Of a stretch of DNA of 64,000 nt, positions 14,486 to 48,736 are shown one piece after another. The stretch spans positions 32,001-96,000 of IMG/VR virus record IMGVR_UViG_3300033121_001789, one strand, 5' to 3'. A model generated the notes under the pieces. That model was not told where the DNA came from. It saw nothing but the letters and a program-made list of their open reading frames with translations, and did no database searches. Within the stretch, counting starts at the first letter, position 1, and each line of letters begins with the position of its first letter. A program made the position numbers and the translations under genes. Origin of the DNA: a virus. Taxonomy: Duplodnaviria; Caudoviricetes.

Positions 14486-15987
14486 AATTCAGCTTCAATT
14501 TGTTTTATTTCATCAAGAACTTTTTTGAGTTCTTCTTTTTTTGCCATCATGATATTTTTATTCTTCTTTCTGTCAGCATAGACATCATCTAACATTTTAA
14601 GTGTTGGTGAGTATCTTTTCTCAAAAACAACACCATTAACACAAACAACATGTATAGATTTATCAATCTTTATCTTCTTTGATCCATTGATGCAATAGTC
14701 AGGATCATCCTCAATAGTAACACCAACAAATGTTTCTGGAGCAATAAAAAATTGCAATTGTGTAGTTGGGTATAATGATGCAAAATCATATATAACACAC
14801 CACTTATTCATACCAACAACTGGATCTTTAACCCATCCACCAGCAATACCATCACCAGCATCACGTACAGCATTTTCATCCTTAAAGAGTATTATATCCT
14901 CCATCTCACGGAAGCGATTTCTCAATACACCCTCGGTTATTGCTAACGATCCAAGTGCATTATTTATTTGAGAAACAATATCAACAACCTTAATTTGTGC
15001 TAAAGAAGATATAGCAAATATTATTGATATATAATTTCTTGACTCATGAATCTTTTGAACAAGAACGGAGTCAACTGCGTTGTAATACATAAATGTCTCA
15101 AAATCGTCTTCATATAATTTTTGCAAAGATCCTGCATATTTTATTTTCTCAACACCAACCAATTTATTAGAAACATAATCTAATGATGATGATTCTTTAA
15201 CTTTTATGGAAGTATCACATATTTCATATAATTGCATATAGTCAAATATCATTCTATGTGCCGGAACTTCATAGTTAGTGGACCATATCTTATTCATTCG
15301 TTTGGTAAAAGATGATACGTTTGGATCTATTCTTATTTCCTGACCATTTACCCATTTAGTTATTTTTCTAGCTCTATTGACCAAATATAACCAGTCATAT
15401 TGCAAGAAATTCCATCCAGTTATGAGAGGCATTTTTGGAACCATTTTATTAAAAAAAGACCAAACCATATCAAATTCATCATCATATTTAATGTATTTAA
15501 ATTTATAATCAGAATCAAACTTTTTAAAATATTTATTAGTGTTTTCTCTAATTCTATCTTGCATATCCTGTGGCATGTCTTTCAATCCCATTAATATGAT
15601 TTTATCATCATAAACAACAGATATAGATAAAACTCTTGTTGGAGCAGTTTCAGCATCTGGGAAACCATCTATTATTTCAGTTTCAATATCCACAAAGTAT
15701 ATTTTGGGTAAATTAAAATCAAAAATTTCTTGTTTTTCTTTGGGTGGCAATTGATCTAAAAATTCATAAATTGAATATCTGTCAGGGTGATTAACTTCAA
15801 TTTGCTTGACACACTTACCATCCCAAGATTTAAATTTTGGATGTCTATCTGGGTCATTAAAGTCACAAGTTATATATTTAAGTGGGTTTTCTAAAGCATA
15901 GTATTTTAATTTTATCTCACCGCTTTTATCAACATAACTAACAACTAACTTTTTTGTATTTGGTAAGTATTGTGTATCGACTAACAT
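14482..15987 (-). CDS. Family B DNA polymerase, N-terminal part (exonuclease plus motif A); split gp43-like
   Basis: ExoI DIETE, ExoII GWNFLQYD, ExoIII YNAVD, GGWV, DFASLYP; ends before motifs B and C; likely ATG 15987. Confidence 0.88.
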   Translation of the reverse strand: MLVDTQYLPNTKKLVVSYVDKSGEIKLKYYALENPLKYITCDFNDPDRHPKFKSWDGKCVKQIEVNHPDRYSIYEFLDQLPPKEKQEIFDFNLPKIYFVDIETEIIDGFPDAETAPTRVLSISVVYDDKIILMGLKDMPQDMQDRIRENTNKYFKKFDSDYKFKYIKYDDEFDMVWSFFNKMVPKMPLITGWNFLQYDWLYLVNRARKITKWVNGQEIRIDPNVSSFTKRMNKIWSTNYEVPAHRMIFDYMQLYEICDTSIKVKESSSLDYVSNKLVGVEKIKYAGSLQKLYEDDFETFMYYNAVDSVLVQKIHESRNYISIIFAISSLAQIKVVDIVSQINNALGSLAITEGVLRNRFREMEDIILFKDENAVRDAGDGIAGGWVKDPVVGMNKWCVIYDFASLYPTTQLQFFIAPETFVGVTIEDDPDYCINGSKKIKIDKSIHVVCVNGVVFEKRYSPTLKMLDDVYADRKKNKNIMMAKKEELKKVLDEIKQIEAEL

Positions 15988-36058: not shown

Positions 36059-36840
36059 TGAGATATATTAAAGATATTAGAGAGGCTTTTAATCACAAAT
36101 GGTCAAAAAATGATGATTTGATACTTCCAATATGGAATATATCGGAAAATGATTTATTTGATGCATTCTCAGATTTAGAAGACGACTTTGAAGTTGAAAT
36201 AACATGTGATTTTCTTCTAAAAAGTCCCAAAGGTCATTTATTTAATCTGAAAGAAGAAAACAAAGAAATAATTGAAAGTTATGCTGCCGCTGGATTTGAA
36301 CCAATAATTCAAGTAAAAATATCCAGTCAGTATCCATTAGCAACAACCGGTGATATGCGTGCAATACAATCAACAATGATGGATTGTATAATGAATTTAG
36401 ATGGATATTATTTATCACATGTATCTAAGTTTAGAACTTATTTTGAAATTCAGTTAATGCAAGAGAAAGACGGCAATGAAAAGATAAAATACCACAAAAA
36501 ATCGAATGTATATTTTTCAAAATATGCCAAACCAATCAAGGATCTTGGTTATAAATTTATAATTAATAAAATATTTGAAATAGGTGATAAAAAGTATATA
36601 AAATTACCAGAAAAATTTGCTGGACAAAAGGTGTATATAATTTTAATAGAAAAGGAATATGTAAATCCCATTGATATTAACCTCATAGATAATATCTACG
36701 AGGTTAAAAATGTTTTTCAATCCATAGAAAGTGAAATTTCCAATTCTAAGGATTTCAAATCCACCAATGGTCAGCTTGAAATAAATAATGAAGATGGGAA
36801 AGTATTCATAAGATTTATTCTAAGAATAGTCGAAGAATAA
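36058..36840 (+). CDS. Hypothetical protein, candidate internal head protein
   Basis: MRYIKDIREAF N-terminus. Confidence 0.6.
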   Translation: MRYIKDIREAFNHKWSKNDDLILPIWNISENDLFDAFSDLEDDFEVEITCDFLLKSPKGHLFNLKEENKEIIESYAAAGFEPIIQVKISSQYPLATTGDMRAIQSTMMDCIMNLDGYYLSHVSKFRTYFEIQLMQEKDGNEKIKYHKKSNVYFSKYAKPIKDLGYKFIINKIFEIGDKKYIKLPEKFAGQKVYIILIEKEYVNPIDINLIDNIYEVKNVFQSIESEISNSKDFKSTNGQLEINNEDGKVFIRFILRIVEE

Positions 36841-36843
36841 AAA

Positions 36844-37524
36844 TTAACACAATAATTCTATTTTACCTCTTGAAAATTCCTTGAAAGAGCATTGCTTATT
36901 AGTGGAATGATCAATAACTAAATCTTCTTTAATACGATAAGATCTTTTTTTATCCGATCGAGAACCCATACCAATTTGGTGTAATCGATTTCTATATTCT
37001 TTTTCGTCCCATTTTTCTTGTTCAATAGACTTTAACTTTTCCTCTAACCTTTTCCAAGCCAATTCTTCATTTTTCAATTGATCTCGAGTATCCTGGCATT
37101 TTATTTGAATTCCAGATGGTCTATGTGTCAAGATAACACAACTTGATACCTTATTAACATTTTGTCCACCCTTGCCACTACTTCTAGTATATTGTCTATC
37201 TACATCATTTCGATTTAAATGAAAGTGTAATTGATTATCCGGATCAATTAAAGCAACTGTAATAATAGAAGTTTGTGTCCTTCCTCTTTTTTCTGTCGAT
37301 GGTACTCTTATCCATCTATGTGGACCAATTTCATTTTTAAATAGATTTGAAACATTTTTCCCACTCAGTCAAATTGAGGCAAATCCATTCCTATCTTCAA
37401 TAATATCATATTTTAATCCATGATTTCTTGCAGTTTTAACATAAATATTTCTAAGATCCTCAACTAACATCTTAGAATCTAATCCGCCCTCAGCGGCTCT
37501 AATTTCTATAATGATTTTTTCCAT
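36844..37524 (-). CDS. RF1-like class I peptide chain release factor lacking domain 1, with one in-frame TGA at codon 52 (37369-37371)
   Basis: Manual translation: IEIRAAEGG...FASI*LSG...E.GPHRWIRVPSTEKRGRTQTS...SSGKGGQNVNK...THRPSGI...RSDKKRSY; PxT and GGQ intact; same frame on both sides of the TGA. Confidence 0.88.
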
Positions 37525-37529
37525 AATTA

Positions 37530-37616
37530 TTAATTTTTATTTTTGAGCAATAAATTGTTATTGTGATTGAATAATCACAAACCGCTAATAATTATGTATT
37601 CTAAATTTCATTTCAT
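37530..37616 (-). promoter_or_regulatory. Leader of the release-factor gene: overlapping uORFs and hairpin
   Basis: uORF A 37616-37530 MK*NLEYIIISGL*LFNHNNNLLLKNKN (two in-frame TGA); uORF B 37611-37585 MKFRIHNY-TAG; 8-bp hairpin 37561-37580; TAATATATA directly upstream. Confidence 0.5.
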
Positions 37617-37629
37617 TATATATTATAAT

Positions 37630-38034
37630 TCAAAATAAAAGTTCTTTTAAAATGAAGTTTCTCTTAACCTCACCAGGTAATATGTCTAATATTCCTCTCT
37701 TACTGACTATTAACTTATTATCTCTACTATAAGAACTATAAATAGTTTTCAATCTATCTCTTTTTGTACTATTACAATCTTCCATCCATATTGTTGATAG
37801 TGAATGATTGACCAATAACGCCCAAAATATGTAGTTATTCTCATAATTCATAACCCAGAAAGAATTGGACTTTGGATGTTCCTTAATGACTTCTTTTTTA
37901 TTTCTATTAGAATCATATTTTATCTCTGTAATATCCAATACCATGGTTGGGTAATGATCAATCGGATGATTACCTGGTTTATGAAAAGATGTTTTCTTAA
38001 ACCCCAAAGTTTTTAATTTCTTATGAATATTCAT
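37630..38034 (-). CDS. Hypothetical protein with C-terminal KRNFILKELL motif
   Basis: 134 aa ORF; TAnnTTTG upstream. Confidence 0.6.
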   Translation of the reverse strand: MNIHKKLKTLGFKKTSFHKPGNHPIDHYPTMVLDITEIKYDSNRNKKEVIKEHPKSNSFWVMNYENNYIFWALLVNHSLSTIWMEDCNSTKRDRLKTIYSSYSRDNKLIVSKRGILDILPGEVKRNFILKELLF

Positions 38035-38083
38035 ATTGCAAATATAATTAAAAAAAGTGATTTTCTAATTAAATATATATTGT

Positions 38084-38329
38084 ATGTATAAAGATACAAC
38101 TCCAACATTCAATTCCGGAAATCGAAAGATTGTCAATTATAAAGACTTTATTCAAAATATTGATAAAGAAAAAGAAGAATTGAAAACTGTTAAAAAGTCA
38201 TTCTCTAAAAATGAATTAGAGATTGGTTTAAAACAGCATAAATATAAATATAATAAAGTCACTCACAAATTAGATGACTTGACACCAGACGAAGTAGATG
38301 ATAAATTAGATAACTTAGAAGAGAATTAA
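38084..38329 (+). CDS. Hypothetical small protein
   Basis: 81 aa ORF; AATATATA upstream. Confidence 0.6.
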   Translation: MYKDTTPTFNSGNRKIVNYKDFIQNIDKEKEELKTVKKSFSKNELEIGLKQHKYKYNKVTHKLDDLTPDEVDDKLDNLEEN

Positions 38330-38694
38330 AAATCATAACTCTCATCTAATAAATTATTAATTCTCAATTGTCTATTTACCTTACCAGTTATATCACCAAG
38401 TGATTCTATCTTTGATAGATATGCCTCATCTTTTGTATCTATCCACTTCTTTAAAATCTTATTATTTTTAAAATACCAAGAATTAAATTCATCAAAAACA
38501 ATATCTAAAGCTGAAAGAAAAGTATAATCAGCAGTTAAAGGATGTGTGTAAATTAAGACAAAAACATCCTCAGTGAGTGAAAGTTCCTCTGAAGAAAAAT
38601 CCTCATATATAATGGTGATATCTCGACCCCAGCTCAAATTCAGTGTAAATCCCAATTTGATTATCCTGTCCAGTTTTGAAACGTCCATCTTCAT
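38326..38694 (-). CDS. Hypothetical protein
   Basis: 122 aa ORF; near-terminal NRQLRINNLL. Confidence 0.55.
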   Translation of the reverse strand: MKMDVSKLDRIIKLGFTLNLSWGRDITIIYEDFSSEELSLTEDVFVLIYTHPLTADYTFLSALDIVFDEFNSWYFKNNKILKKWIDTKDEAYLSKIESLGDITGKVNRQLRINNLLDESYDF

Positions 38695-39376
38695 TTACTA
38701 TATAGTCAATTTTACGATCTCTTTGCTCTGAAATATATTCATTATACCCATACATATAGTCATCCTCAAAGATAAATATAACCTCCGGATAGAAAACCTC
38801 AAACTTTAAATCACAAGTAATTGATGTATATCCGGTAACTGATCCAGGTCTAAAAGTATCATTAAAATGTTGTATATTTGATATATCAACATTAATAGAC
38901 TTAAATGATACTATGTGATTTGACTTCCAAGTCTCAAATGGATTAACATAGACATCAATATAATCAAATTTTCCTATCGGATAAATCGTTTTACCATTCA
39001 AATTACTTAGCGAATTATGTGTGAAATGTAAAGAATCTTGTAAATCTGCTGCTATTCTAGCTCCAGAAACAATTTTCGAGTTTTTGTCTAATGTAGGTAT
39101 TAAATATAAATTATCAAATTTAGAAGGATTGTGTGATTTTCCTCTAAAATCTAAAAATCTCTTCTTACCATGATTGAAAATAGATGCAAATATCTTTTTC
39201 TCAATACACTGTGAAATTTCATCAATCAAAATTTGATTGAAATATGATTCAACATCAATATTAAAAAATTGAGAAGCTACAGGATTAGAAACTGAAACTT
39301 GTACTCTTTCGGGCATAACCCCTGATACAATTGATTTATTAAAACAAGAAAACTTAAAGTTATCACTTGATATCAT
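38603..39376 (-). CDS. Truncated, divergent paralog of the major capsid protein
   Basis: ILIDEISQCIEKKIF, IVSGARIAADL and IYPIGKFDYIDVYVNPF..WKSNHIV align with ILVNELSQTISKQIV, ITNGGLAAAL and LYPVGTIGDIQIYVDPY..YSDNRIV of 46991-48736. Confidence 0.7.
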   Translation of the reverse strand: MISSDNFKFSCFNKSIVSGVMPERVQVSVSNPVASQFFNIDVESYFNQILIDEISQCIEKKIFASIFNHGKKRFLDFRGKSHNPSKFDNLYLIPTLDKNSKIVSGARIAADLQDSLHFTHNSLSNLNGKTIYPIGKFDYIDVYVNPFETWKSNHIVSFKSINVDISNIQHFNDTFRPGSVTGYTSITCDLKFEVFYPEVIFIFEDDYMYGYNEYISEQRDRKIDYIVNEDGRFKTGQDNQIGIYTEFELGSRYHHYI

Positions 39377-39758
39377 TTATTTCATTTATTTTATTAGTTG
39401 TTGAATATCCTCCTATTTTGCTAAAAAATATAATATTCGGCACATTTTCAGATCCAATGACTTTTTTGTCCTTATAATCATCCCCTAGTATTATATAATG
39501 CGGATTCCATAATTTAATTTGATCCTCTAATTCTTTATCTGTGCCAAAACTAACAACAGAATCAACATATTTAATACTTTCCATCATTACTATTCTATCA
39601 GATAATTTATTAATAGGTCTAGATGTACCTTTAAGTTCTTTAACTCTATTGTCTTTATCAATACCAACACGAACAGTCCCATATGAGTTTGCGAATTTTA
39701 ATAACTCGATGTGTCCTCGATGTAAAATATCAAAAGTACCATTTACCCAAACTCTCAT
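39363..39758 (-). CDS. Cytidylyl/adenylyltransferase (HldE-II/TagD-like)
   Basis: NGTFDILHRGH, VGIDKD..VKELKG..RP, GDDY, YSTT. Confidence 0.9.
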   Translation of the reverse strand: MRVWVNGTFDILHRGHIELLKFANSYGTVRVGIDKDNRVKELKGTSRPINKLSDRIVMMESIKYVDSVVSFGTDKELEDQIKLWNPHYIILGDDYKDKKVIGSENVPNIIFFSKIGGYSTTNKINEINDIK

Positions 39759-40132
39759 ATTTGTGAATCTCCTTTAAAAATTCTATAAGAATCACTATCA
39801 AAATGTTGTGTTGATACTTCAAAAACAACACCATCTGTAATAGCCTCCAATTGATGTGGCTGACCTGGATATTGTCGAACAGAATCACCCACATTTAATA
39901 GAACCTCACAAATAGTAGCTTTATCTGTATCTATATAACGATAAATAAATTGACCCTCATTTACATACCAAGTCTCATCCTTTATCATATGATAATGCAT
40001 TGAAAATTTACAACCTTTTTTAAAAACAAGTAATTTCCCACAATAGAGGTTGTTATTTGCTATAATAATTTCATGTCCCCATCCCTTAGGAACCTTACAC
40101 TCATCACATTTTATAATCTTTGGTAATTCCAT
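39755..40132 (-). CDS. Cupin protein (sugar isomerase-like)
   Basis: KGWGHE, SMHYHMIKDETWYV, PGQPH, EVST.H.DSDSYR. Confidence 0.85.
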   Translation of the reverse strand: MELPKIIKCDECKVPKGWGHEIIIANNNLYCGKLLVFKKGCKFSMHYHMIKDETWYVNEGQFIYRYIDTDKATICEVLLNVGDSVRQYPGQPHQLEAITDGVVFEVSTQHFDSDSYRIFKGDSQI

Positions 40133-40135
40133 AAT

Positions 40136-41083
40136 TTATATTTTATTAAAATTTTCATCATAATTCATTATCAGTAATTCAGTTCCTTTTAATTGTTCTC
40201 CTTTTAGTTGGTGATTATTTCCACCCATCGCCGATCTGCGCACAACATCTCTTTGAATCCATCTATATTTCTCTCTTGGTAGTAATTCATCCAAAAGAGG
40301 AAAGTAATAATATGATAATGACCATTTTGATTTGGTTGTTTTAATTAATTCTATTAATCTTCTATGTGATGCCGGTCCAAAAACACCATCAGCATCAGCA
40401 CCATACCAAAATAATCTTTTAGAATCATCATCTTTTTCACCATTAAATCTAGCATATGGCGGGTCCAAATAAATATATGTACTTTCAGAATCATATTTTT
40501 TTATTAATTCCTCGAAGTCTGTACTATACCAATGTGTGATAGAATTTAATTTATCAGTATAAGTATTTTTCTTTAATTTATTAATTAATACACTTAATTT
40601 AAGTTTATCTTGTTTTTTAATATACCCGGAGAATCCGCCACCCCTAGGATAAACTGAGGAAAAACTCGAAGTTATTAAAAAAGCATATATAGCTGCCCTT
40701 TCAAAGTCTCCTAATTCGAAATCCTTATTATCAAGAAAATCATTTTTTGTATATTCCCTATAAACAGATTTATAAAAATCCCATTTCAAATTTACATCTG
40801 TTTCATTAGTATATAAAATTCCCCCAGTAGACAATAATTTATTAATTGAATCTAATAATTTATCTGGTGTAGCGGCGCACTTATATAAGTTTGCTTGATG
40901 TTTATTAATATCATTAAAAATTACATTTTCAAAAACCATATCAGGATCATCCATAAATGTTGCAAAACTACCTGAAAATGGCTCAATATATGTTTTGATA
41001 TTATTCTTTGGGATGTTTGGATTTATAAGATGTTTGACAAAGTCATTAGAAGATTTAGATCCGAAGTAAGATATTAAAGACAT
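40136..41083 (-). CDS. Dam-like (D12 class) DNA adenine methyltransferase
   Basis: YFGSK, YIEPFSGS, NDIN, YLDPPY, ELLIMNY. Confidence 0.88.
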   Translation of the reverse strand: MSLISYFGSKSSNDFVKHLINPNIPKNNIKTYIEPFSGSFATFMDDPDMVFENVIFNDINKHQANLYKCAATPDKLLDSINKLLSTGGILYTNETDVNLKWDFYKSVYREYTKNDFLDNKDFELGDFERAAIYAFLITSSFSSVYPRGGGFSGYIKKQDKLKLSVLINKLKKNTYTDKLNSITHWYSTDFEELIKKYDSESTYIYLDPPYARFNGEKDDDSKRLFWYGADADGVFGPASHRRLIELIKTTKSKWSLSYYYFPLLDELLPREKYRWIQRDVVRRSAMGGNNHQLKGEQLKGTELLIMNYDENFNKI

Positions 41084-41166
41084 AATTAAAGTTTAGAAAT
41101 TATAGATTAAAAAATAAATATGTTTAGGTAATCAATGGGAAGACAAATTGATTTAATATATAAAAT

Positions 41167-41826
41167 ATGATAATTTATAAAATAACAAATTTAATTAATA
41201 ACAAAGTATATATAGGACAAACAACCGAAAGTCTTCAAAAAAGATGGAAAAGACATACATCCGAATACCATGAAAAAAATATGTATATATCAAGAACAAT
41301 ATCTAAATATGGCGAAAAAAATTTTATTATAGAAAAGATATGTGAATGTTATTCTTTACAAGAATTAAATGAAAAAGAAATTTTTTATATAAATGAATAT
41401 GATTCTCTATCACCGAATGGGTACAATCTTGTTGTAGGTGGTAATAATAGTAAAATGAGCGATGAAACAAAATTAAAAATATCCAATAGCCACAAAAAAA
41501 GATATCTAGATGGTAAAGTTATCTCTGAAGAAACTAGGAAAAAATTGTCAGAATCACATAAAGGATGGATTCCATCAGAAGAAACTCGTCAAAAATGGAG
41601 AGATGCCTTCTCTGGAAAAAAACCATCCGAGAAAACAAGAATCGGTGCCATATCACATCATCAAAAAACATATACCTTTGAAAGTCCAGATGGTGAAATA
41701 ATTACTTTTACAAATATGAAAGATTTTTGTAAAAAAAATAATTTATGCAATTCTAAATTATGTTTGGTCGCATCTGGTAAAAGAAACCACCATAAAGGAT
41801 GGAAATTACACAAATCACATTTGTAA
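41167..41826 (+). CDS. GIY-YIG homing endonuclease with NUMOD3 repeats
   Basis: IIYKITNLINNKVYIGQT...R; SEETRKKLSESHKG repeats. Confidence 0.9.
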   Translation: MIIYKITNLINNKVYIGQTTESLQKRWKRHTSEYHEKNMYISRTISKYGEKNFIIEKICECYSLQELNEKEIFYINEYDSLSPNGYNLVVGGNNSKMSDETKLKISNSHKKRYLDGKVISEETRKKLSESHKGWIPSEETRQKWRDAFSGKKPSEKTRIGAISHHQKTYTFESPDGEIITFTNMKDFCKKNNLCNSKLCLVASGKRNHHKGWKLHKSHL

Positions 41827-42288
41827 TTTTTTAATATCATTACGAATCCTCATTAGAAGATTACCTAAGTTGTTTTCTCCTTTATTATTACACTTATTAC
41901 AAGTGCAAACTCCCCACCAGGTATCGTGCCAATAATTTCCCTCAATTAACATCTCATCTCCTGTCTGCAATAATAGTTCTTGTAGGTTTTTAATCTTGAA
42001 TTTTTCTCTTAATCCAAATTCCATAACCTTTAGACGAATTGAGTCCCAATCTGGTCTTAATTTAAAACCTCTACCCATTCTTTTAACCTGACCCGGAGTT
42101 AGAACTTTCGATACTAATTGTCGAGTATCTTCAAGTGTATAAAATTGACCATCAATTATTTGTCCTTCTTTTATTTTCATAGCAACATAATAATGTTCCA
42201 CAGATGGATAAACAATACCCTGATAAGTTATCTCACAAGGATAAAAATTTGATAAAAAAAACCATCGACCTTTAAATGAATCTATCAT
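41815..42288 (-). CDS. NADAR (YbiA-like) family protein
   Basis: FLSNFY, SVEHYY.A.K, W...R..VM...L..KF, LL.TGD..LIEGNYWHDTWWG, GENNLG.LLM.IR. Confidence 0.92.
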   Translation of the reverse strand: MIDSFKGRWFFLSNFYPCEITYQGIVYPSVEHYYVAMKIKEGQIIDGQFYTLEDTRQLVSKVLTPGQVKRMGRGFKLRPDWDSIRLKVMEFGLREKFKIKNLQELLLQTGDEMLIEGNYWHDTWWGVCTCNKCNNKGENNLGNLLMRIRNDIKKLQM

Positions 42289-42334
42289 AATAATTTTATA
42301 TCTTTAATTAATAATAATGTTTAATATATAATTA

Positions 42335-43495
42335 ATGACAAAAGAAGAATTCAAAAATATATTCATAGAATTAACAAACTACACAATTCCATTTGGAAAA
42401 GAAAAATTATTAGAAAAACATCTACCAAAGGGATTTAAGAAAGATAATATTGGAAATTACTACTATGAAATAGGAAATTCTGAAACATTATTTACATCAC
42501 ATTTAGATACATTTTCAAAAAAATACGAAAAGGTTAATCATGTAATTGACGAAGATGATCCATATATTATATCCACAGACGGTAAAACTATCTTAGGTGG
42601 GGATAATAAATTAGGATGTACTATTTTGTTTGGCATGATTAAAAATTCTATACCAGGAACTTATTACTTTTTTCTTGGAGAAGAGCCAATTTTAAGTGGT
42701 GGATTATGGGGTTCAAGAAATGCATTAGAAAGTAATTTTGAATATTTCAAAAAATTTAAAAGATGTATCGCATTCGATAGAAAGCAGTATGGATCAATTG
42801 TTGTTCGTCAAATGGGTCGTATGTGTTGTTCTAAAGAATTCGCTAGTGAAATTGCCAAACAATTAAAAATTGGTGGAATTAATTGGGACGAATCTGTTGG
42901 ATTTGGATATTATACAGATACCGCCGTTTTCATGGATGTAATACCAGAATGTACAAACATATCAGCAGGTGGATTTAATGAACATTATAAGAGTGAATGG
43001 GTCGATCTAAATTATACATATAATGTTTATAAGTCAGCATTAAAAATTAAATGGGAGGAACTACCGACTAATAGAAAGTTAGAAGTTAGATTTTCAGATG
43101 AGGAAAAAGAAACAATAAATAAAGACTTCAAGAAATTTCAACAAATAAAGATATATAAAGAAATAGAATCTATGACAGAATTAGTAGATCTATCCAAAAC
43201 GAGAGACATATCTAAAAATGGAGAAAGATATTTAACATTCTCAAAATGGCTTGAAGATTATGACTTGGATATAACTTTGTCAAATAGTAAAATTATTATA
43301 AATGGTAAAGAATTATCAATGAATCAGTTAAAAAGATTAATTCTTACAGAATTCAGGGAAGATATACTCGATCAAATAAAGTATTATATAGAAATGAAAG
43401 AAAAAAAGGAATTAGATAAGATACTTTATATCTTTGGATTCAAAACAATACCAGAAATAATTAAATTTCTTAAAACAAAAAAAAGAGGAAAATAA
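42335..43495 (+). CDS. M28/M20-like zinc peptidase, paralog 2
   Basis: SHLDT, GGDNKLG, GEE, FDRK, YTD, TNISAGGFNEH. Confidence 0.83.
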   Translation: MTKEEFKNIFIELTNYTIPFGKEKLLEKHLPKGFKKDNIGNYYYEIGNSETLFTSHLDTFSKKYEKVNHVIDEDDPYIISTDGKTILGGDNKLGCTILFGMIKNSIPGTYYFFLGEEPILSGGLWGSRNALESNFEYFKKFKRCIAFDRKQYGSIVVRQMGRMCCSKEFASEIAKQLKIGGINWDESVGFGYYTDTAVFMDVIPECTNISAGGFNEHYKSEWVDLNYTYNVYKSALKIKWEELPTNRKLEVRFSDEEKETINKDFKKFQQIKIYKEIESMTELVDLSKTRDISKNGERYLTFSKWLEDYDLDITLSNSKIIINGKELSMNQLKRLILTEFREDILDQIKYYIEMKEKKELDKILYIFGFKTIPEIIKFLKTKKRGK

Positions 43496-43508
43496 TTTCC
43501 TCTTTTTT
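43479..43508. terminator. Bidirectional intrinsic terminator
   Basis: AAAAAAGAGGAAA-ATAA-TTTCCTCTTTTTT between the peptidase and the tmRNA. Confidence 0.75.
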
Positions 43509-43516
43509 GATAAACC

Positions 43517-43562
43517 GTTCAGATATTTACCCTGTTTAAAACTGTTCAGATATTTACCCTGT
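43517..43562. repeat. 19-bp direct repeat GTTCAGATATTTACCCTGT, two copies, period 27
   Basis: Copies at 43517-43535 and 43544-43562, just 3' of the tmRNA. Confidence 0.85.
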
Positions 43563-43573
43563 CTATCGTTTGG

Positions 43574-43941
43574 TGGTGGAGGCGGAGGGTTCGAATCCTC
43601 GTCTTCCTCAGTTAGATACAACCAATCATTTACAAGCTTAGTTAATTTTTCTAAACTAACAAAATAATAAATTTTTTCGACTCAAAAAATATTTATAAAA
43701 AACTATCACGATTTTTATCTGTTGGATTCAGAGGTAAATTTCTTGAAATATCAATTAAGCCATTTCAAACTCATTCACCATGAGTAAGTTGTTTTGTAGG
43801 GCAGCTACTAAATCTTCACTGGTTCCCACTTCGTTTGTTTTGCCGATTACGACATTCGCCATTTAATTTTTAATCGGTTATATGACAATCCGATACTTGC
43901 TCAATTACACCTAGGACCGCGAATCAATACATTACGCCCCC
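43574..43941 (-). ncRNA. ssrA: tmRNA (368 nt); predicted tag (A)GKTNEVGTSEDLVAALQNNLLMVNEFEMA at 43844-43755
   Basis: 5' GGGGGCG pairs with CGCCUCC-ACCA (G3.U Ala identity); GAC then T-arm GAGGA-UUCGAA-CCCUC; resume context GUAAUC-GGC. Confidence 0.9.
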
Positions 43942-43992
43942 ATATTTCTACAAAGATACAATTATATATTAAATTATCAAAATGTTTTTTTT

Positions 43993-45792
43993 CTAAAATG
44001 GAGCAGAATCATCAAATTTATCCACAAGTGAGTATCTATCATCATCCTCATCGTCGTCATCAGAATAATCTTCCTCAGCATCTTCCCAAGTAAATGAAAA
44101 TTTCAATATTGGGAAACCATCCTTACTTTCATACAACTCCACCTCAACATTATACTTTGAAAGTAATTCTTCTTTAACACGACCAACAACATCAAATGCT
44201 TTTAAAAGTGTTGAAATTTTCTCTCGGTGTTTTAAAAATGTATAAACATTCAAATCATATTCTTCAGATGTTACATTAACATCTAATCCATTAGAAACAA
44301 ACATTTGTTCAACCCAATAACATAATTCCTCAATATCATCTTTAAATCCACCTGATTCCTCCAAAGAATGTAATGATTCATATGTAGTATCATCATCAAC
44401 ACCATAATAGTCATGATATTTTTTAAAAACAGGATCAACTGTTAATTCAATCTTAATTATACTATCATCAAATGTGAGTGTCGGATCCATACTATGTATA
44501 TTAAACATCTCACTTAAATTTAAAAAATCATCCTGTACTAATTCTACATCGGATTCGTCCATATCTATTTTAAGAAATTCTATTCCATAAGATGACATCA
44601 ATTTTATATCTAAATTAAAAGCACATGACCGAAAATCATTTAAAAAATCCTTAAAATAATGTAAAAATAAATCACTAAATCCAATCTTTCTCTTAACTGT
44701 TAAATTCTCCCAATCAACCCCAACAGAAGCTTTTGCGAGCCTTTCAAGGAAAGAAATATTCTGAGATTCTCTATTTGTATGTTCATCAAAATATCCAACA
44801 GATATATTTGTACACTCTGGTATTTGGTCAATAAAAGATGCAGAGTCGGTATAAATTCCAGTATCGTCCAAATTAAATTTCATTCCATTTTTAGAATATT
44901 CAGCCGCTAATGAATGTGCAAATTCATCTGAACAACATTCTGCAAACATTTGTGATGTAATAATTGAATAATAATTTCTCCTATCAAATGATACGCATTT
45001 TTTCAATCCTTTAAGATGCTCAAATGATTCAAATTCTTTTGAGACTTTACCAGATCCAATTCCACCTCTTTCTTCACCAATAAAGAAATAATAAACACCA
45101 GGTACATTATGAGCAATCATGTACAATAGTACAGTAACTCCTGATTTATCATCGGCTCCTAAGATAGTTGTACCATCGCTAACAATATGCTCTTGTCCAT
45201 CTATCATTCTGCTATATAAAACCACATTTGTTTGCTTCCTATCTGCGGTATCAAGGTGACAAGTAAACATAGTTGTTGATTTACCTACTATTTTATAATA
45301 GTTTCCAAATTTATCTTTTGTTAGACCTATCTGTGATATCAAAGGATAAACATCATCTTCTTGTGGATGTGGATATGTTTTAGTCACCAATGATATGAAA
45401 GTATCTCGAACATTTTTAGGATTAAACTTAAATTCTGGAACCACAATTAACGTTGAATTACCAAAAGACTTGATTGGTTTTTTTTGTTTTTTTGCCTTTA
45501 ATGTATTATACTTGATTGTAAATTTTTTGATCTCATCTTCAGTAAATTGATCAGGAAAAAATTTACGAATCATATATCCAACTTTTATCGGATTATACTT
45601 CCCACCTATTTTAGCATTAAATGACCAATCATGTCTCGACATATCTAATTGCTCAATTCCCAAAGTGTCTGCGGCAATTGAAATATCATTCTCAACTCTC
45701 ATAAGTTTATCTGATATCTTATCCTCTATATCATCAAAAATATCATACAAATCATCAGTATATTTTATGGGCATTGGTCTATTCTTAATCAT
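43993..45792 (-). CDS. M28/M20-like zinc peptidase, paralog 3, with N- and C-terminal extensions
   Basis: CHLDT, GADDKSG, GEE, FDRR, YTDSA, TNISVGYFDEH; acidic tail. Confidence 0.85.
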   Translation of the reverse strand: MIKNRPMPIKYTDDLYDIFDDIEDKISDKLMRVENDISIAADTLGIEQLDMSRHDWSFNAKIGGKYNPIKVGYMIRKFFPDQFTEDEIKKFTIKYNTLKAKKQKKPIKSFGNSTLIVVPEFKFNPKNVRDTFISLVTKTYPHPQEDDVYPLISQIGLTKDKFGNYYKIVGKSTTMFTCHLDTADRKQTNVVLYSRMIDGQEHIVSDGTTILGADDKSGVTVLLYMIAHNVPGVYYFFIGEERGGIGSGKVSKEFESFEHLKGLKKCVSFDRRNYYSIITSQMFAECCSDEFAHSLAAEYSKNGMKFNLDDTGIYTDSASFIDQIPECTNISVGYFDEHTNRESQNISFLERLAKASVGVDWENLTVKRKIGFSDLFLHYFKDFLNDFRSCAFNLDIKLMSSYGIEFLKIDMDESDVELVQDDFLNLSEMFNIHSMDPTLTFDDSIIKIELTVDPVFKKYHDYYGVDDDTTYESLHSLEESGGFKDDIEELCYWVEQMFVSNGLDVNVTSEEYDLNVYTFLKHREKISTLLKAFDVVGRVKEELLSKYNVEVELYESKDGFPILKFSFTWEDAEEDYSDDDDEDDDRYSLVDKFDDSAPF

Positions 45793-45802
45793 TTCTTATA
45801 TA

Positions 45803-46189
45803 TTAAATATTAATATTAATTTCTTCAGCGTTCTTATAATCAACTTTTACCTGTCCAATATTCATTTCTGGTAATTTCTTAACGAATTTTGACTTACAAC
45901 AAATAACTATACAATTTCCAGTAACTTTTGAATTTTTAGCAACAATTTCAGCTGCTTTATGTTTCACCTCTTTTGTTATCAATCTATCTTTTTGTCTAAT
46001 AATAGCATGACACCCTGGTTTTCCCTTAACATGGAACCATAAATCCTCAGGATCTGCCATAATTGTTGTTAAATAATCATTTGATTTCCCATCCCTACCA
46101 AAAATTAGTGTATAATCATCTATAATTATCGTTCTTAAATTTGGAAATTTATCCTTGGACTCGTTAAAAGAAATAAAATTCTTTATCAT
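45803..46189 (-). CDS. Stand-alone NFACT-R (DUF814; RqcH/FbpA RNA-binding domain) protein
   Basis: GRDGKSNDYLT...DLWFHVKGKPGCHAII...AAEIVA.NSK...VKK....GQV. Confidence 0.85.
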   Translation of the reverse strand: MIKNFISFNESKDKFPNLRTIIIDDYTLIFGRDGKSNDYLTTIMADPEDLWFHVKGKPGCHAIIRQKDRLITKEVKHKAAEIVAKNSKVTGNCIVICCKSKFVKKLPEMNIGQVKVDYKNAEEININI

Positions 46190-46990: not shown

Positions 46991-48736
46991 TTAGTTTAAG
47001 TATTGTCTTGTGTCAGTAACAACAATTGTCATATACTGTTTTTGTGGGAAGAATCCTACATCAGCAAGAGCGTATCTTGAACGTAACAACATTCTTGGTG
47101 CGAAAGTTGCTTCGGAAATTACACTAATAGACTGTGCCATTAAGTAAGGTACGAAGATAAGACCTGGTTGGTCTGGGTTATTCTTTCTACCCAATACGAT
47201 TCTGTTGTCGCTATATCTCATATATGGATCAACGTAGATTTGGATATCACCTATTGTTCCAACTGGATATAATTGTCCTTGACCGTTAACTTTAGATTTA
47301 ACCGGGTTAATTGTATAACCAGATATATCCATAAGAGCTGCCGCAAGACCTCCATTTGTAATAGCGAATTGAGCTGGACCAACTCTACCTTCAGTAGCTA
47401 TATAGTTAGAAGCGTGAGCCATCTTAGTTATAAGCTTTCTCTGAACAGCGTGAGTTGTTTCACCACCGATACCACCACCGTATGTAACATAGTTTGTGTC
47501 TAAGTCAAAGATAGTAGATGCAGTTGTACCAGGAACAGTTGTACCTAAACTTGCGTTTAAAGGTGCATTTTGTCTGTTAGATTCACCAAGTGCAAATATT
47601 TTTTGAACGATTTGTTTAGAAATTGTTTGAGACAATTCATTTACAAGGATAGATTCCATCTTTTGAACGATATCCATACCTGTATTAGCTTTAATGTCTT
47701 CAATTTCTGTTCTTCTTAAAGCAGTTGATACTTCAATTGTACCCACAGCTATTGATTTAGAAGAAATTTTTGGACCAATAACACCTGAATAAGTATTATC
47801 ATCTGTTTGTCTATCCATTGGATAGTCTCCTGATGAAAGAGATGCTGCCCAGTTTGCAGAGAAACCTGGAAGTTGATCTTCAAGTGCAGATACTAATTCA
47901 ATTGTAGCAGAAGCAGTTACACCAACAGTACCAATATAGTTGATTTGAGCAACCATAGATGCAGTAGCATTGAATGTATTATACTCTGGAGCAAAATTAA
48001 ATGGACTTGTGTTAGCACCACCATAAACATTTTGAGAGTTTGCTTGTCTGTAAGCTCTGAACATTGGAGCTCCATCAATTCTTGAGAATCCTAAGAATTC
48101 AAGAACGTTTGTTTTTGTACTTGGTTCAGTTGAAACAAGTGCTGTAGACGAGCTGATATTAGCAACGAATACTCTTGCTCCTTGGATACCACCTGTTGTT
48201 AGTGTTCCAGATGCTGCAGTAACCTCAGTAGTTAAAGCTGCTTTCATAGCTGCTAATGCACCAGCACCAGCTGCAGTGATTTTAAATACTTGTGGACGAC
48301 CAGTTGTTCCACCATTTGTTAAATCATCATATTGAAAATCAATATAAAGAAGGTCGATTTTTGGACCTGGAGTTGGTTTTACAGCAACTAAATCAAGACC
48401 AATTGTTTGAGCTGCAATTTTCATCGCAACTGGCAAAAGATTTTGACCTAAATCACCAGAACCAAGAACACCAGCAGCACCACCGTATTGAGTTGGAAGT
48501 GAACCTCCACCAAAACCAGCACCACCACCAAGGTAACCAGGCAAACCAGCTACTGAAGGTGCTACTACTGAGCCCATACCAGCTGTTGTTGCGTTAGCGT
48601 AAGCGTTCTCATTGATTGAGTGAAATTCAGCATATTCTGCTAACCATTCAACTCTGTCAGAAGATACACCCATGTTTTCCAATACAGGACCCCATTTCTT
48701 AACCGCTTTTTGTTTGTCTATTCTAATGTGTGACAT
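46991..48736 (-). CDS. Major capsid protein (T4 gp23-like)
   Basis: KKWGPVLE, DLVAVKP..GP, EDIKA..GMD...ILVNELSQTI, IYVDPY, PGLIFVPY, TFAPRMLLRSRYAL. Confidence 0.93.
   Translation of the reverse strand: MSHIRIDKQKAVKKWGPVLENMGVSSDRVEWLAEYAEFHSINENAYANATTAGMGSVVAPSVAGLPGYLGGGAGFGGGSLPTQYGGAAGVLGSGDLGQNLLPVAMKIAAQTIGLDLVAVKPTPGPKIDLLYIDFQYDDLTNGGTTGRPQVFKITAAGAGALAAMKAALTTEVTAASGTLTTGGIQGARVFVANISSSTALVSTEPSTKTNVLEFLGFSRIDGAPMFRAYRQANSQNVYGGANTSPFNFAPEYNTFNATASMVAQINYIGTVGVTASATIELVSALEDQLPGFSANWAASLSSGDYPMDRQTDDNTYSGVIGPKISSKSIAVGTIEVSTALRRTEIEDIKANTGMDIVQKMESILVNELSQTISKQIVQKIFALGESNRQNAPLNASLGTTVPGTTASTIFDLDTNYVTYGGGIGGETTHAVQRKLITKMAHASNYIATEGRVGPAQFAITNGGLAAALMDISGYTINPVKSKVNGQGQLYPVGTIGDIQIYVDPYMRYSDNRIVLGRKNNPDQPGLIFVPYLMAQSISVISEATFAPRMLLRSRYALADVGFFPQKQYMTIVVTDTRQYLN

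Follow-up and report, generated by a model that had tools for sequence, protein, structure and literature searches.

A conserved in-frame UGA in an RF1-like release factor gene of a huge phage may gate synthesis of the factor through programmed readthrough

A short class I release factor gene of a huge phage, located at positions 36844-37524 on the minus strand of the window (by which we mean the whole 64,000-nucleotide stretch of DNA analysed here), comprises 226 codons followed by TAA and is interrupted once in translation, by a TGA at codon 52. We consider it fairly probable that this UGA is programmed to be leaky, and that its readthrough gates synthesis of the factor and ties that synthesis to termination efficiency. 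A first-pass annotation of the window had described a 226-codon class I factor with intact PxT and GGQ motifs and a lone TGA at codon 52, and this description was borne out by translation and by Pfam and NCBIfam searches.

The gene belongs to a phage, as the same annotation had assumed, and lies on a virus contig: the window covers bases 32001-96000 of a 109,852-base IMG/VR virus record (hereafter the contig) that is rated ~20% complete, has a GC content of 28%, contains six tRNAs at one end, and encodes a Gp23-type major capsid protein at window positions 46991-48736. The top database matches to the factor came from phage genomes LR756502, LR756501, LR745206, and LR756504, which are 635-735 kb in size and are predicted to infect Bacteroidetes. 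The host of the phage studied here is probably also a member of the Bacteroidota, a placement that fits the scarcity of Shine-Dalgarno (SD) sequences on the contig, where an SD core precedes 1 of 92 genes and leaders are A/T-rich. Three wastewater RNA runs contained 94% of the words sampled from the stretch; at the release factor gene, RNA contigs provided no usable cover from run X1 and none from run X4.

A full-length tmRNA-like match at window positions 43574-43941 on the minus strand (RF00023, 41.7 bits against a gathering score of 47, E 3.8e-14) was missed both by ARAGORN and by the gathering-threshold scan, and adjoining this region is a gene for a stand-alone NFACT-R protein (PF05670, 128 aa; 45803-46189, minus strand). 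Together with the release factor gene, these form a ribosome-rescue and quality-control gene cluster. SmpB-like genes were found in two complete relatives, at ~367.5-368.0 kb in LR756502 and ~332.9-333.4 kb in LR745206. The window also holds a GIY-YIG/NUMOD3 homing endonuclease gene (41167-41826, plus strand) whose neighbours are a Dam-type methyltransferase gene (40136-41083) and a NADAR-domain gene (41815-42288).

Within the release factor gene (all positions minus strand), codons 1-51 (37372-37524) correspond to the PCRF match and encode the start of domain 2, including the EIRAAEGG..D helix-tip motif. The gating TGA (37369-37371) is followed by a CTG codon (37366-37368), producing the weak UGA-C context ATT TGA CTG A. 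Codons 53-226 (36847-37368) form a 174-aa open frame encoding the rest of domain 2, domain 3 with the GGQ motif, and domain 4, and the true terminator is the TAA at 36844-36846. This downstream frame contains the decoding-loop stretch from I72 to Q84 (37273-37311), the PxT codon-recognition tripeptide P75-S76-T77 (37294-37302), which aligns with P184-V185-T186 of Thermus thermophilus RF1, and the catalytic GGQ at residues 119-121 (37162-37170), which occupies invariant alignment columns. Homologues begin at the same methionine as the ATG at 37524, and the earliest in-frame ATG, GTG, or TTG downstream of the TGA is a TTG at codon 132, past GGQ. Since no in-frame start lies between the TGA and GGQ, a functional protein needs decoding through the codon-52 stop. 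A +1 frameshift of the prfB type is absent here, as homology stays in frame 0 and the +1 frame reaches a TGA after one codon. A scan for promoters and terminators around the gene returned nothing above chance. A perfect 8-bp inverted repeat, TTGTGATT-ATTC-AATCACAA (37561-37580, minus strand), lies 36 nt 5' of the ATG and may act as an operator or fold into a leader hairpin. The upstream ORF at 37630-38034 was considered as a detached domain 1 and rejected; it has no family match and is unlinked to the release factor gene in LR756502.

Judged from its sequence, the gene product is a domain-1-less, RF1-like class I release factor. Pfam matches on the joined protein (PCRF at residues 3-90 and RF-1 at residues 100-206) flank the stop, and among NCBIfam profiles RF1 scored highest (184.8 bits, against 128.5 for RF2 and 78.9 for PrfH), with ArfB also matched and all scores under their cut-offs. 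The RF1 profile match (NF001859/TIGR00019) covers positions 105-332 of 347; because it begins at position 105, domain 1 is absent and the protein starts at domain 2. The protein is accordingly not a four-domain RF1 by the curated cut-off (184.8 against 400 bits, with domain 1 missing), while alignment and an AlphaFold (AF2) model together contain PxT, GGQ, and the RF1 fold of domains 2-4. The closest solved sequence is T. thermophilus RF1 (E 8e-37, residues 107-316), followed by RF2 and PrfH at ~1e-24, and the AF2 model, built from an alignment of 42 family members, has a mean pLDDT of 90.4 and a TM-score of 0.87 to ribosome-bound T. thermophilus RF1. The first-pass annotation had likened the factor to PrfH-type rescue proteins on account of its missing domain 1. 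The loss of the domain held, and the likeness to PrfH (TIGR03072; PDB 9mor), a rescue factor for damaged ribosomes that also has ~200-230 residues, lacks domain 1, and retains GGQ, extends to architecture only: the phage protein scores 78.9 bits against the PrfH cut-off of 166.65, its TM-score to PrfH is 0.61 compared with 0.87 for RF1, and unlike PrfH it retains the motifs for reading codons, PxT and the helix tip. The 20 neighbouring ORFs scanned include no RtcB partner gene.

The decoding pocket departs from that of RF1 at two positions. In T. thermophilus RF1, we take Q181 and H193/T194 to be the canonical third-base readers, as in published RF1-ribosome structures. In the alignment to this protein, Q181 is replaced by I72 and H193 by Q84, with T85 retained. 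Throughout the window gene's subclade, the two residues are replaced together (I, V, or L for Q181 and Q for H193), and remoter family members retain Q and H. This joint replacement may indicate altered third-base specificity. The PxT threonine is retained, but with I72 at the Q181 position and Q84 at the H193 position, the RF1-like codon range (UAA and UAG only) that the earlier annotation took from PxT is an assumption.

The stop at codon 52 is a genuine and conserved feature of the gene. Two independent DNA studies yielded contigs, ~99% identical to the window, that span 37369-37371 and carry the TGA unchanged. The four huge-phage homologues, which are 47-55% identical to the window's protein, all end in TAA and contain an in-frame TGA, or two, within the corresponding N-terminal part; three of the four share the stop at the codon-52 column. 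Across relatives 47-73% identical, a stop stands in the same column and every gene ends in a different stop. Comparisons with seven relatives yielded dN/dS values of 0.14-0.34 upstream of the stop (codons 1-51) and 0.13-0.17 downstream of it (codons 53-226; rough values, with synonymous sites near saturation), indicating that both halves are under purifying selection. The gene therefore combines a conserved in-frame stop with purifying selection on either side, the pattern by which programmed readthrough is recognized, and the check on conservation called for in the first-pass annotation was borne out by these comparisons.

The interruption is also specific to this gene. Long ORFs on the contig are intact under translation table 11, and table 4 lengthens no other gene by much; TGA ends 17 of 108 long contig ORFs (16%), compared with 13% in LR756502. 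We compared orthologues using all stop-to-stop frames with TGA read as sense and shadow frames removed, drawing on two complete relatives, LR756502 (642 kb) and LR745206 (635 kb). Over ~75 gene pairs between the contig and LR756502, a TGA fell within an alignment in one coding region alone, that of the release factor; between the two complete genomes (455 homologous ORFs, 135,173 aligned residues), in-frame TGA was likewise found solely in the release factor gene. The remaining in-frame TGA matches of the comparison were two in 5' leaders and three in tRNA clusters. Each of five relatives contains exactly one gene with a release factor domain, the gated gene. Genome-wide reassignment of TGA (codes 4/25) is ruled out by the ORF comparison, the orthologue alignments, the TGA gene ends, and the lack of a UCA-anticodon tRNA in the genomes scanned, in agreement with the earlier claim that TGA is a genuine stop elsewhere in the window.

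Relatives of the gene are gated in several ways. An IMG/VR scan identified 511 relatives, of which the best 80 loci, with five sequences from a phage collection and the window's gene, gave 77 unique sequences. These divide into 28 with one in-frame stop, 18 with two, 19 with a +1 frameshift site only, one with both an in-frame TGA and a shift site (L118), seven with no gate, and four whose N-terminus was not captured. At least one gate was therefore present in the same region in 66 of the 73 assessable homologues from these best 80 of 511 loci and added sequences, and 60 of the 77 end in TAA. In this 77-sequence set, the in-frame gates are 61 TGAs and four TAGs, and the frameshift gates, in 20 genes, consist of CTT followed by TAG (10), TGA (9), or TAA (1). 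GC-rich members carry a prfB cassette (cGGAGG-NNN-CTT-TGA/TAG/TAA), in which 3 nt separate an upstream cGGAGG from the shift site, and AT-rich members have a TGY CTT TAG C site with no SD. Sister genes with an identical PPT motif have CTT-TAG, CTT-TGA, or CTT-TAA cassettes and, rarely, an in-frame TAG.

Gate types appear to have been exchanged repeatedly. On a maximum-likelihood tree (with moderate support, 0.6-0.9), the TGY-CTT-TAG shift at column 53 arises at four separate places within the clade that has TGA at column 52, and the readthrough and frameshift forms differ by a TGA/TGY change plus one inserted T. Two members, L108 and L005 (of which L090 is an IMG/VR duplicate), have lost the column-52 stop and retained another. 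The replacement of one gate form by another at adjacent codons, at four places in the tree, indicates that selection keeps the gate itself and not one mechanism. A few TAG gates need separate treatment. The in-frame TAG of L114 probably belongs to a TAG-recoded phage and acts there as an ordinary sense codon, and that of L112 is ambiguous. L087, L088, and L096, which have standard-code flanks, combine TGA with TAG, both in frame, in one release factor gene, at codons 44 and 52, with the TAG at a column where other members have TGA.

At the gating stop, the termination context has clearly been selected to be weak, as judged from base and codon usage. UGA-C is the weakest bacterial stop signal. 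The base following the 61 gating TGAs is A in 31 cases, C in 27, G in three, and T in none, compared with 60 A, 1 C, 25 G, and 57 T after 143 real TGA gene ends in three genomes (Fisher p ~1e-15 for C and 2.5e-11 for T, with the caveat that these are related sequences and not independent events). In other words, 58 of 61 gates have UGA-C or UGA-A and none has UGA-T, and the 143 real TGA ends include a single UGA-C. One study reports that U after the stop lowers readthrough in bacteria and yeast (PMC5289835). Leucine codons directly 3' of a gating TGA are CTA, CTG, or CTC in 27 of 27 cases, against TTA/TTG shares of 51% among the other 565 leucine codons of the same genes and 67% in the contig; in the window's gene, 15 of 18 leucine codons are TTA or TTG and the sole CTG is the codon after the stop. 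The weak UGA-C context proposed in the first-pass annotation is thus supported by both the base counts and the leucine codon bias.

We infer that readthrough takes place, and likewise its level, the inserted residue, and the factor that sets its rate (host RF2 or the phage protein itself). At codon 52, most ribosomes would terminate and yield a 51-residue fragment of no use, and a minority would decode the UGA with an ordinary near-cognate tRNA and go on to make the complete factor. The inserted residue would be tryptophan by bacterial precedent, and cysteine occupies this column in sister genes of the frameshift type. The residue of T. thermophilus RF1 aligned with codon 52 is V159, and that aligned with codon 39, the site of another family stop, is T142; both columns are tolerant surface positions in beta-strands, at which ungated relatives have K, R, E, Q, C, S, Y, or G. 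Because readthrough would compete with UGA termination at the A site, the yield of factor should vary inversely with UGA termination efficiency: slow termination would produce more full-length factor and efficient termination less, according to the logic of bacterial prfB but by readthrough in place of a +1 shift.

What the gate would sense is a separate question. The first-pass annotation had proposed that full-length factor is made when UGA termination is impaired, with the gate reporting on host RF2. The need to decode through the UGA stands, given that no start precedes GGQ, while sensing specific to RF2 is weakened by relatives that use UAG or UAA gates and by a decoding pocket unlike that of RF1, and an RF2-specific cross-sensor is plausible but unproven. 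Since sister genes are gated at UAG, UGA, and UAA, the logic they share would be that of any poorly terminated stop, and a sensor of termination capacity in general, or a broad-specificity factor that regulates its own synthesis, fits the range of gates as well as an RF2 cross-sensor does. We regard it as a tentative possibility that the short factor is a release factor of bacterial type that is not RF1-specific but broad or omnipotent, reading UGA as well. This is left open by the pocket (Q181 to I, H193 to Q) and by gate codons that are freely exchanged among genes sharing a PPT/PST motif. If this were so, all gates of the family (UGA, UAG, or UAA, by readthrough or frameshift) would represent true autoregulation, one self-regulating, domain-1-less factor would run termination in the infected cell for these huge phages, and phage termination would be independent of host RF1, RF2, and RF3. 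A factor strictly specific for UAA and UAG would instead leave the UGA gate without feedback, and either sensing of host RF2 or attenuation would then account for it.

Attenuation with no sensing at all, in which a leaky stop simply holds a potentially toxic factor to a few per cent of the capacity of its mRNA, is unlikely in our view. Overproduction of release factors is harmful in bacteria (PMC12421855), and a pure attenuator would tolerate the variation in stop identity found across the family. A weak start site or promoter would achieve the same effect at lower cost, however, and the gates persist through repeated swaps of mechanism, are often doubled, and in GC-rich members retain the full SD-CTT-stop cassette of prfB, a known sensor.

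A different account would have the UGA decoded by a suppressor tRNA, supplied by phage or host and perhaps non-canonical, so that the gate acts as a timed switch at a set stage of infection, as has been proposed for stop-codon-recoded phages. Huge phages have 22-62 tRNAs, some of them odd, a module consisting of a suppressor tRNA and RF1 is known in TGA-recoded Jade phages, and a suppressor would account for the lineage with both UGA and UAG. That lineage counts against readthrough by near-cognate tRNAs: the L087/L096 combination is hard to explain by ordinary leakiness, and L088, which is the 318-kb record G001, has a gene that requires both TGA and TAG to be read through. Also counted against the readthrough reading is the possible presence of a suppressor tRNA in the ~80% of the phage genome that lies outside the contig. 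The first-pass annotation had allowed for such a tRNA, and ARAGORN detected none with a UCA, CUA, or UUA anticodon in the window or the 110-kb contig (~20% of this phage's genome). The same anticodons were absent from the complete genomes LR756502 (46 tRNAs, with no tRNA-Trp) and LR745206 (59 tRNAs, including the near-cognates Trp-CCA and Cys-GCA) and from G001 (96% complete; 22 tRNAs plus five with relaxed settings, including Trp-CCA and Cys-GCA). A suppressor would moreover serve one gene and yet misread ~15% of the phage's own gene ends, and competition with termination is the better fit both for the selection of a weak context and for the swapping of in-frame stops and frameshift cassettes. 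We therefore consider the suppressor account improbable.

Several phage tRNAs are unusual in their own right. A tRNA-Trp with the Hirsh-type U11-A24 pair is present in LR745206 and absent from W02 (a further relative) and G001, LR756502 having no tRNA-Trp. Abnormal anticodon loops occur at contig positions 4640-4735 (outside the window), at 435101-435174 in LR756502, and at 407364-407437 and 419836-419923 in LR745206; ARAGORN assigned 4-base or 2-base 'anticodons' to those of the contig and LR745206, and the LR756502 tRNA has a 6-nt loop, UUUUCA. G001 contains four tRNA-like elements (14840-14939, 15058-15158, 15385-15459, and 84518-84613) with near-identical acceptor and T arms (AGTCAGG...CAGGTTCGAnTCCTGTCCTGACTA) and divergent, irregular cores for which ARAGORN needs an 'intron'.

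Special decoding routes, either selenocysteine insertion or A-to-I editing that turns UGA or UAG into a tryptophan codon, are very improbable. In their favour, TGA alternates with cysteine codons in sister genes at both stop columns, many members can form a small hairpin that encloses the stop, and editing would render UGA and UAG equivalent. In 30 family members, the 39 nt centred on the column-52 stop had a mean folding energy of -6.95 kcal/mol compared with -3.87 gene-wide (z negative in 28 of 30), and small hairpins of varying shape, for example GTTAG-NNNN-TGA-CTAAC, tend to have the stop within their loop or next to it. The hairpin of the window's gene is weak (z -0.5), however, and hairpin geometry differs among members. 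No special route is needed for the frameshift variants, and the stop positions are surface beta-strand sites and not active sites. A fold of 37270-37400, examined for a downstream stimulator structure, was not significant (z -0.67), and a sensitive Rfam scan of 36500-44200 detected no known RNA element or SECIS at the stop. A selenoprotein gene was rejected on the lack of an Rfam match near the site, of significant structure, and of a tRNA-Sec in the complete relatives LR756502 and LR745206. That the gene is a pseudogene or a sequencing or assembly error, as might be supposed from its splitting by gene callers and from a single stop being the simplest kind of lesion, is already refuted by conservation at the sequence level, with the same stop recurring across dozens of diverged genomes, both halves evolving under purifying selection, no second lesion, and agreement between independent assemblies.

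Programmed readthrough of a leaky UGA, our favoured reading, can be compared with several known systems. In phage Q-beta, the A1 protein is made from a leaky UGA that is read by the normal tRNA-Trp at a low, set rate. The window's gene resembles Q-beta in having a leaky UGA in a phage gene, but the second product of Q-beta is a C-terminally extended coat protein, whereas here the short product is presumably waste and the functional domains occur in the readthrough product only. Bacterial prfB, the nearest system in its logic, is a release factor gene with an internal stop in a weak UGA-C context whose output tracks termination efficiency. In contrast to prfB, in which an SD precedes CUU UGA C, the window's gene has no frame change, CUU, or SD, its site is in domain 2 as opposed to codon 26 in domain 1, its product is RF1-like and not RF2, and a PxT factor would not be expected to read its gate codon. 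A 2025 survey of 12,753 genomes found that no programmed frameshifting was known for prfA and that TAG was never the cassette stop (PMC12421855).

A viral parallel comes from giant viruses of amoebae. Expression of the Mimivirus and Megavirus class I release factor gene (R726/mg280) needs both UGA-C readthrough and a UAG frameshift (PMC3521657). As in the phage family, UGA-C is rare at genuine gene ends, UAG frameshift gates occur in the same gene family, and tryptophan is the residue proposed (PMC3521657). The Mimivirus factor is of the eukaryotic/archaeal eRF1 type, however, and the phage factor of the bacterial RF1 type without domain 1; as the two genes are unrelated, their likeness is convergent. 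The recoded Jade, Lak, and Agate phages also encode class I release factors that are thought to reshape termination (bioRxiv 10.1101/2021.08.26.457843), but those genes lie in standard-coded 'code-change modules' next to suppressor tRNAs, and in-frame stops are numerous in their genomes, whereas the phage studied here has a standard-coded genome with a stop in the release factor gene only. Phage-borne RF1 and RF2 have been reported in recoded and huge phages, with recoding within those genes unmentioned (for recoded phages, see bioRxiv 10.1101/2021.08.26.457843). We found no description of recoding gates in phage release factors in the full-text literature, of which coverage was partial, and this recoding-gated family, including its readthrough-type variant, appears to be unpublished.

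Gene callers split or miss gated genes, so inventories of phage translation genes would undercount them. The gate sequences may represent compact sensors of termination efficiency for hosts that do not rely on SD, such as Bacteroidota. To our knowledge, the textbook case of a release factor regulated by its own kind of signal is bacterial RF2 alone. The phage family would bring this prfB principle to an RF1-type gene, through UGA readthrough or through +1 frameshifting at UGA, UAG, or UAA. Whether a class I factor can act alone when it lacks domain 1 is one question that the family raises, and it also offers a natural series for asking what purpose a viral release factor may serve, whether as a backup when host termination fails, as a means of takeover, or as a timer.
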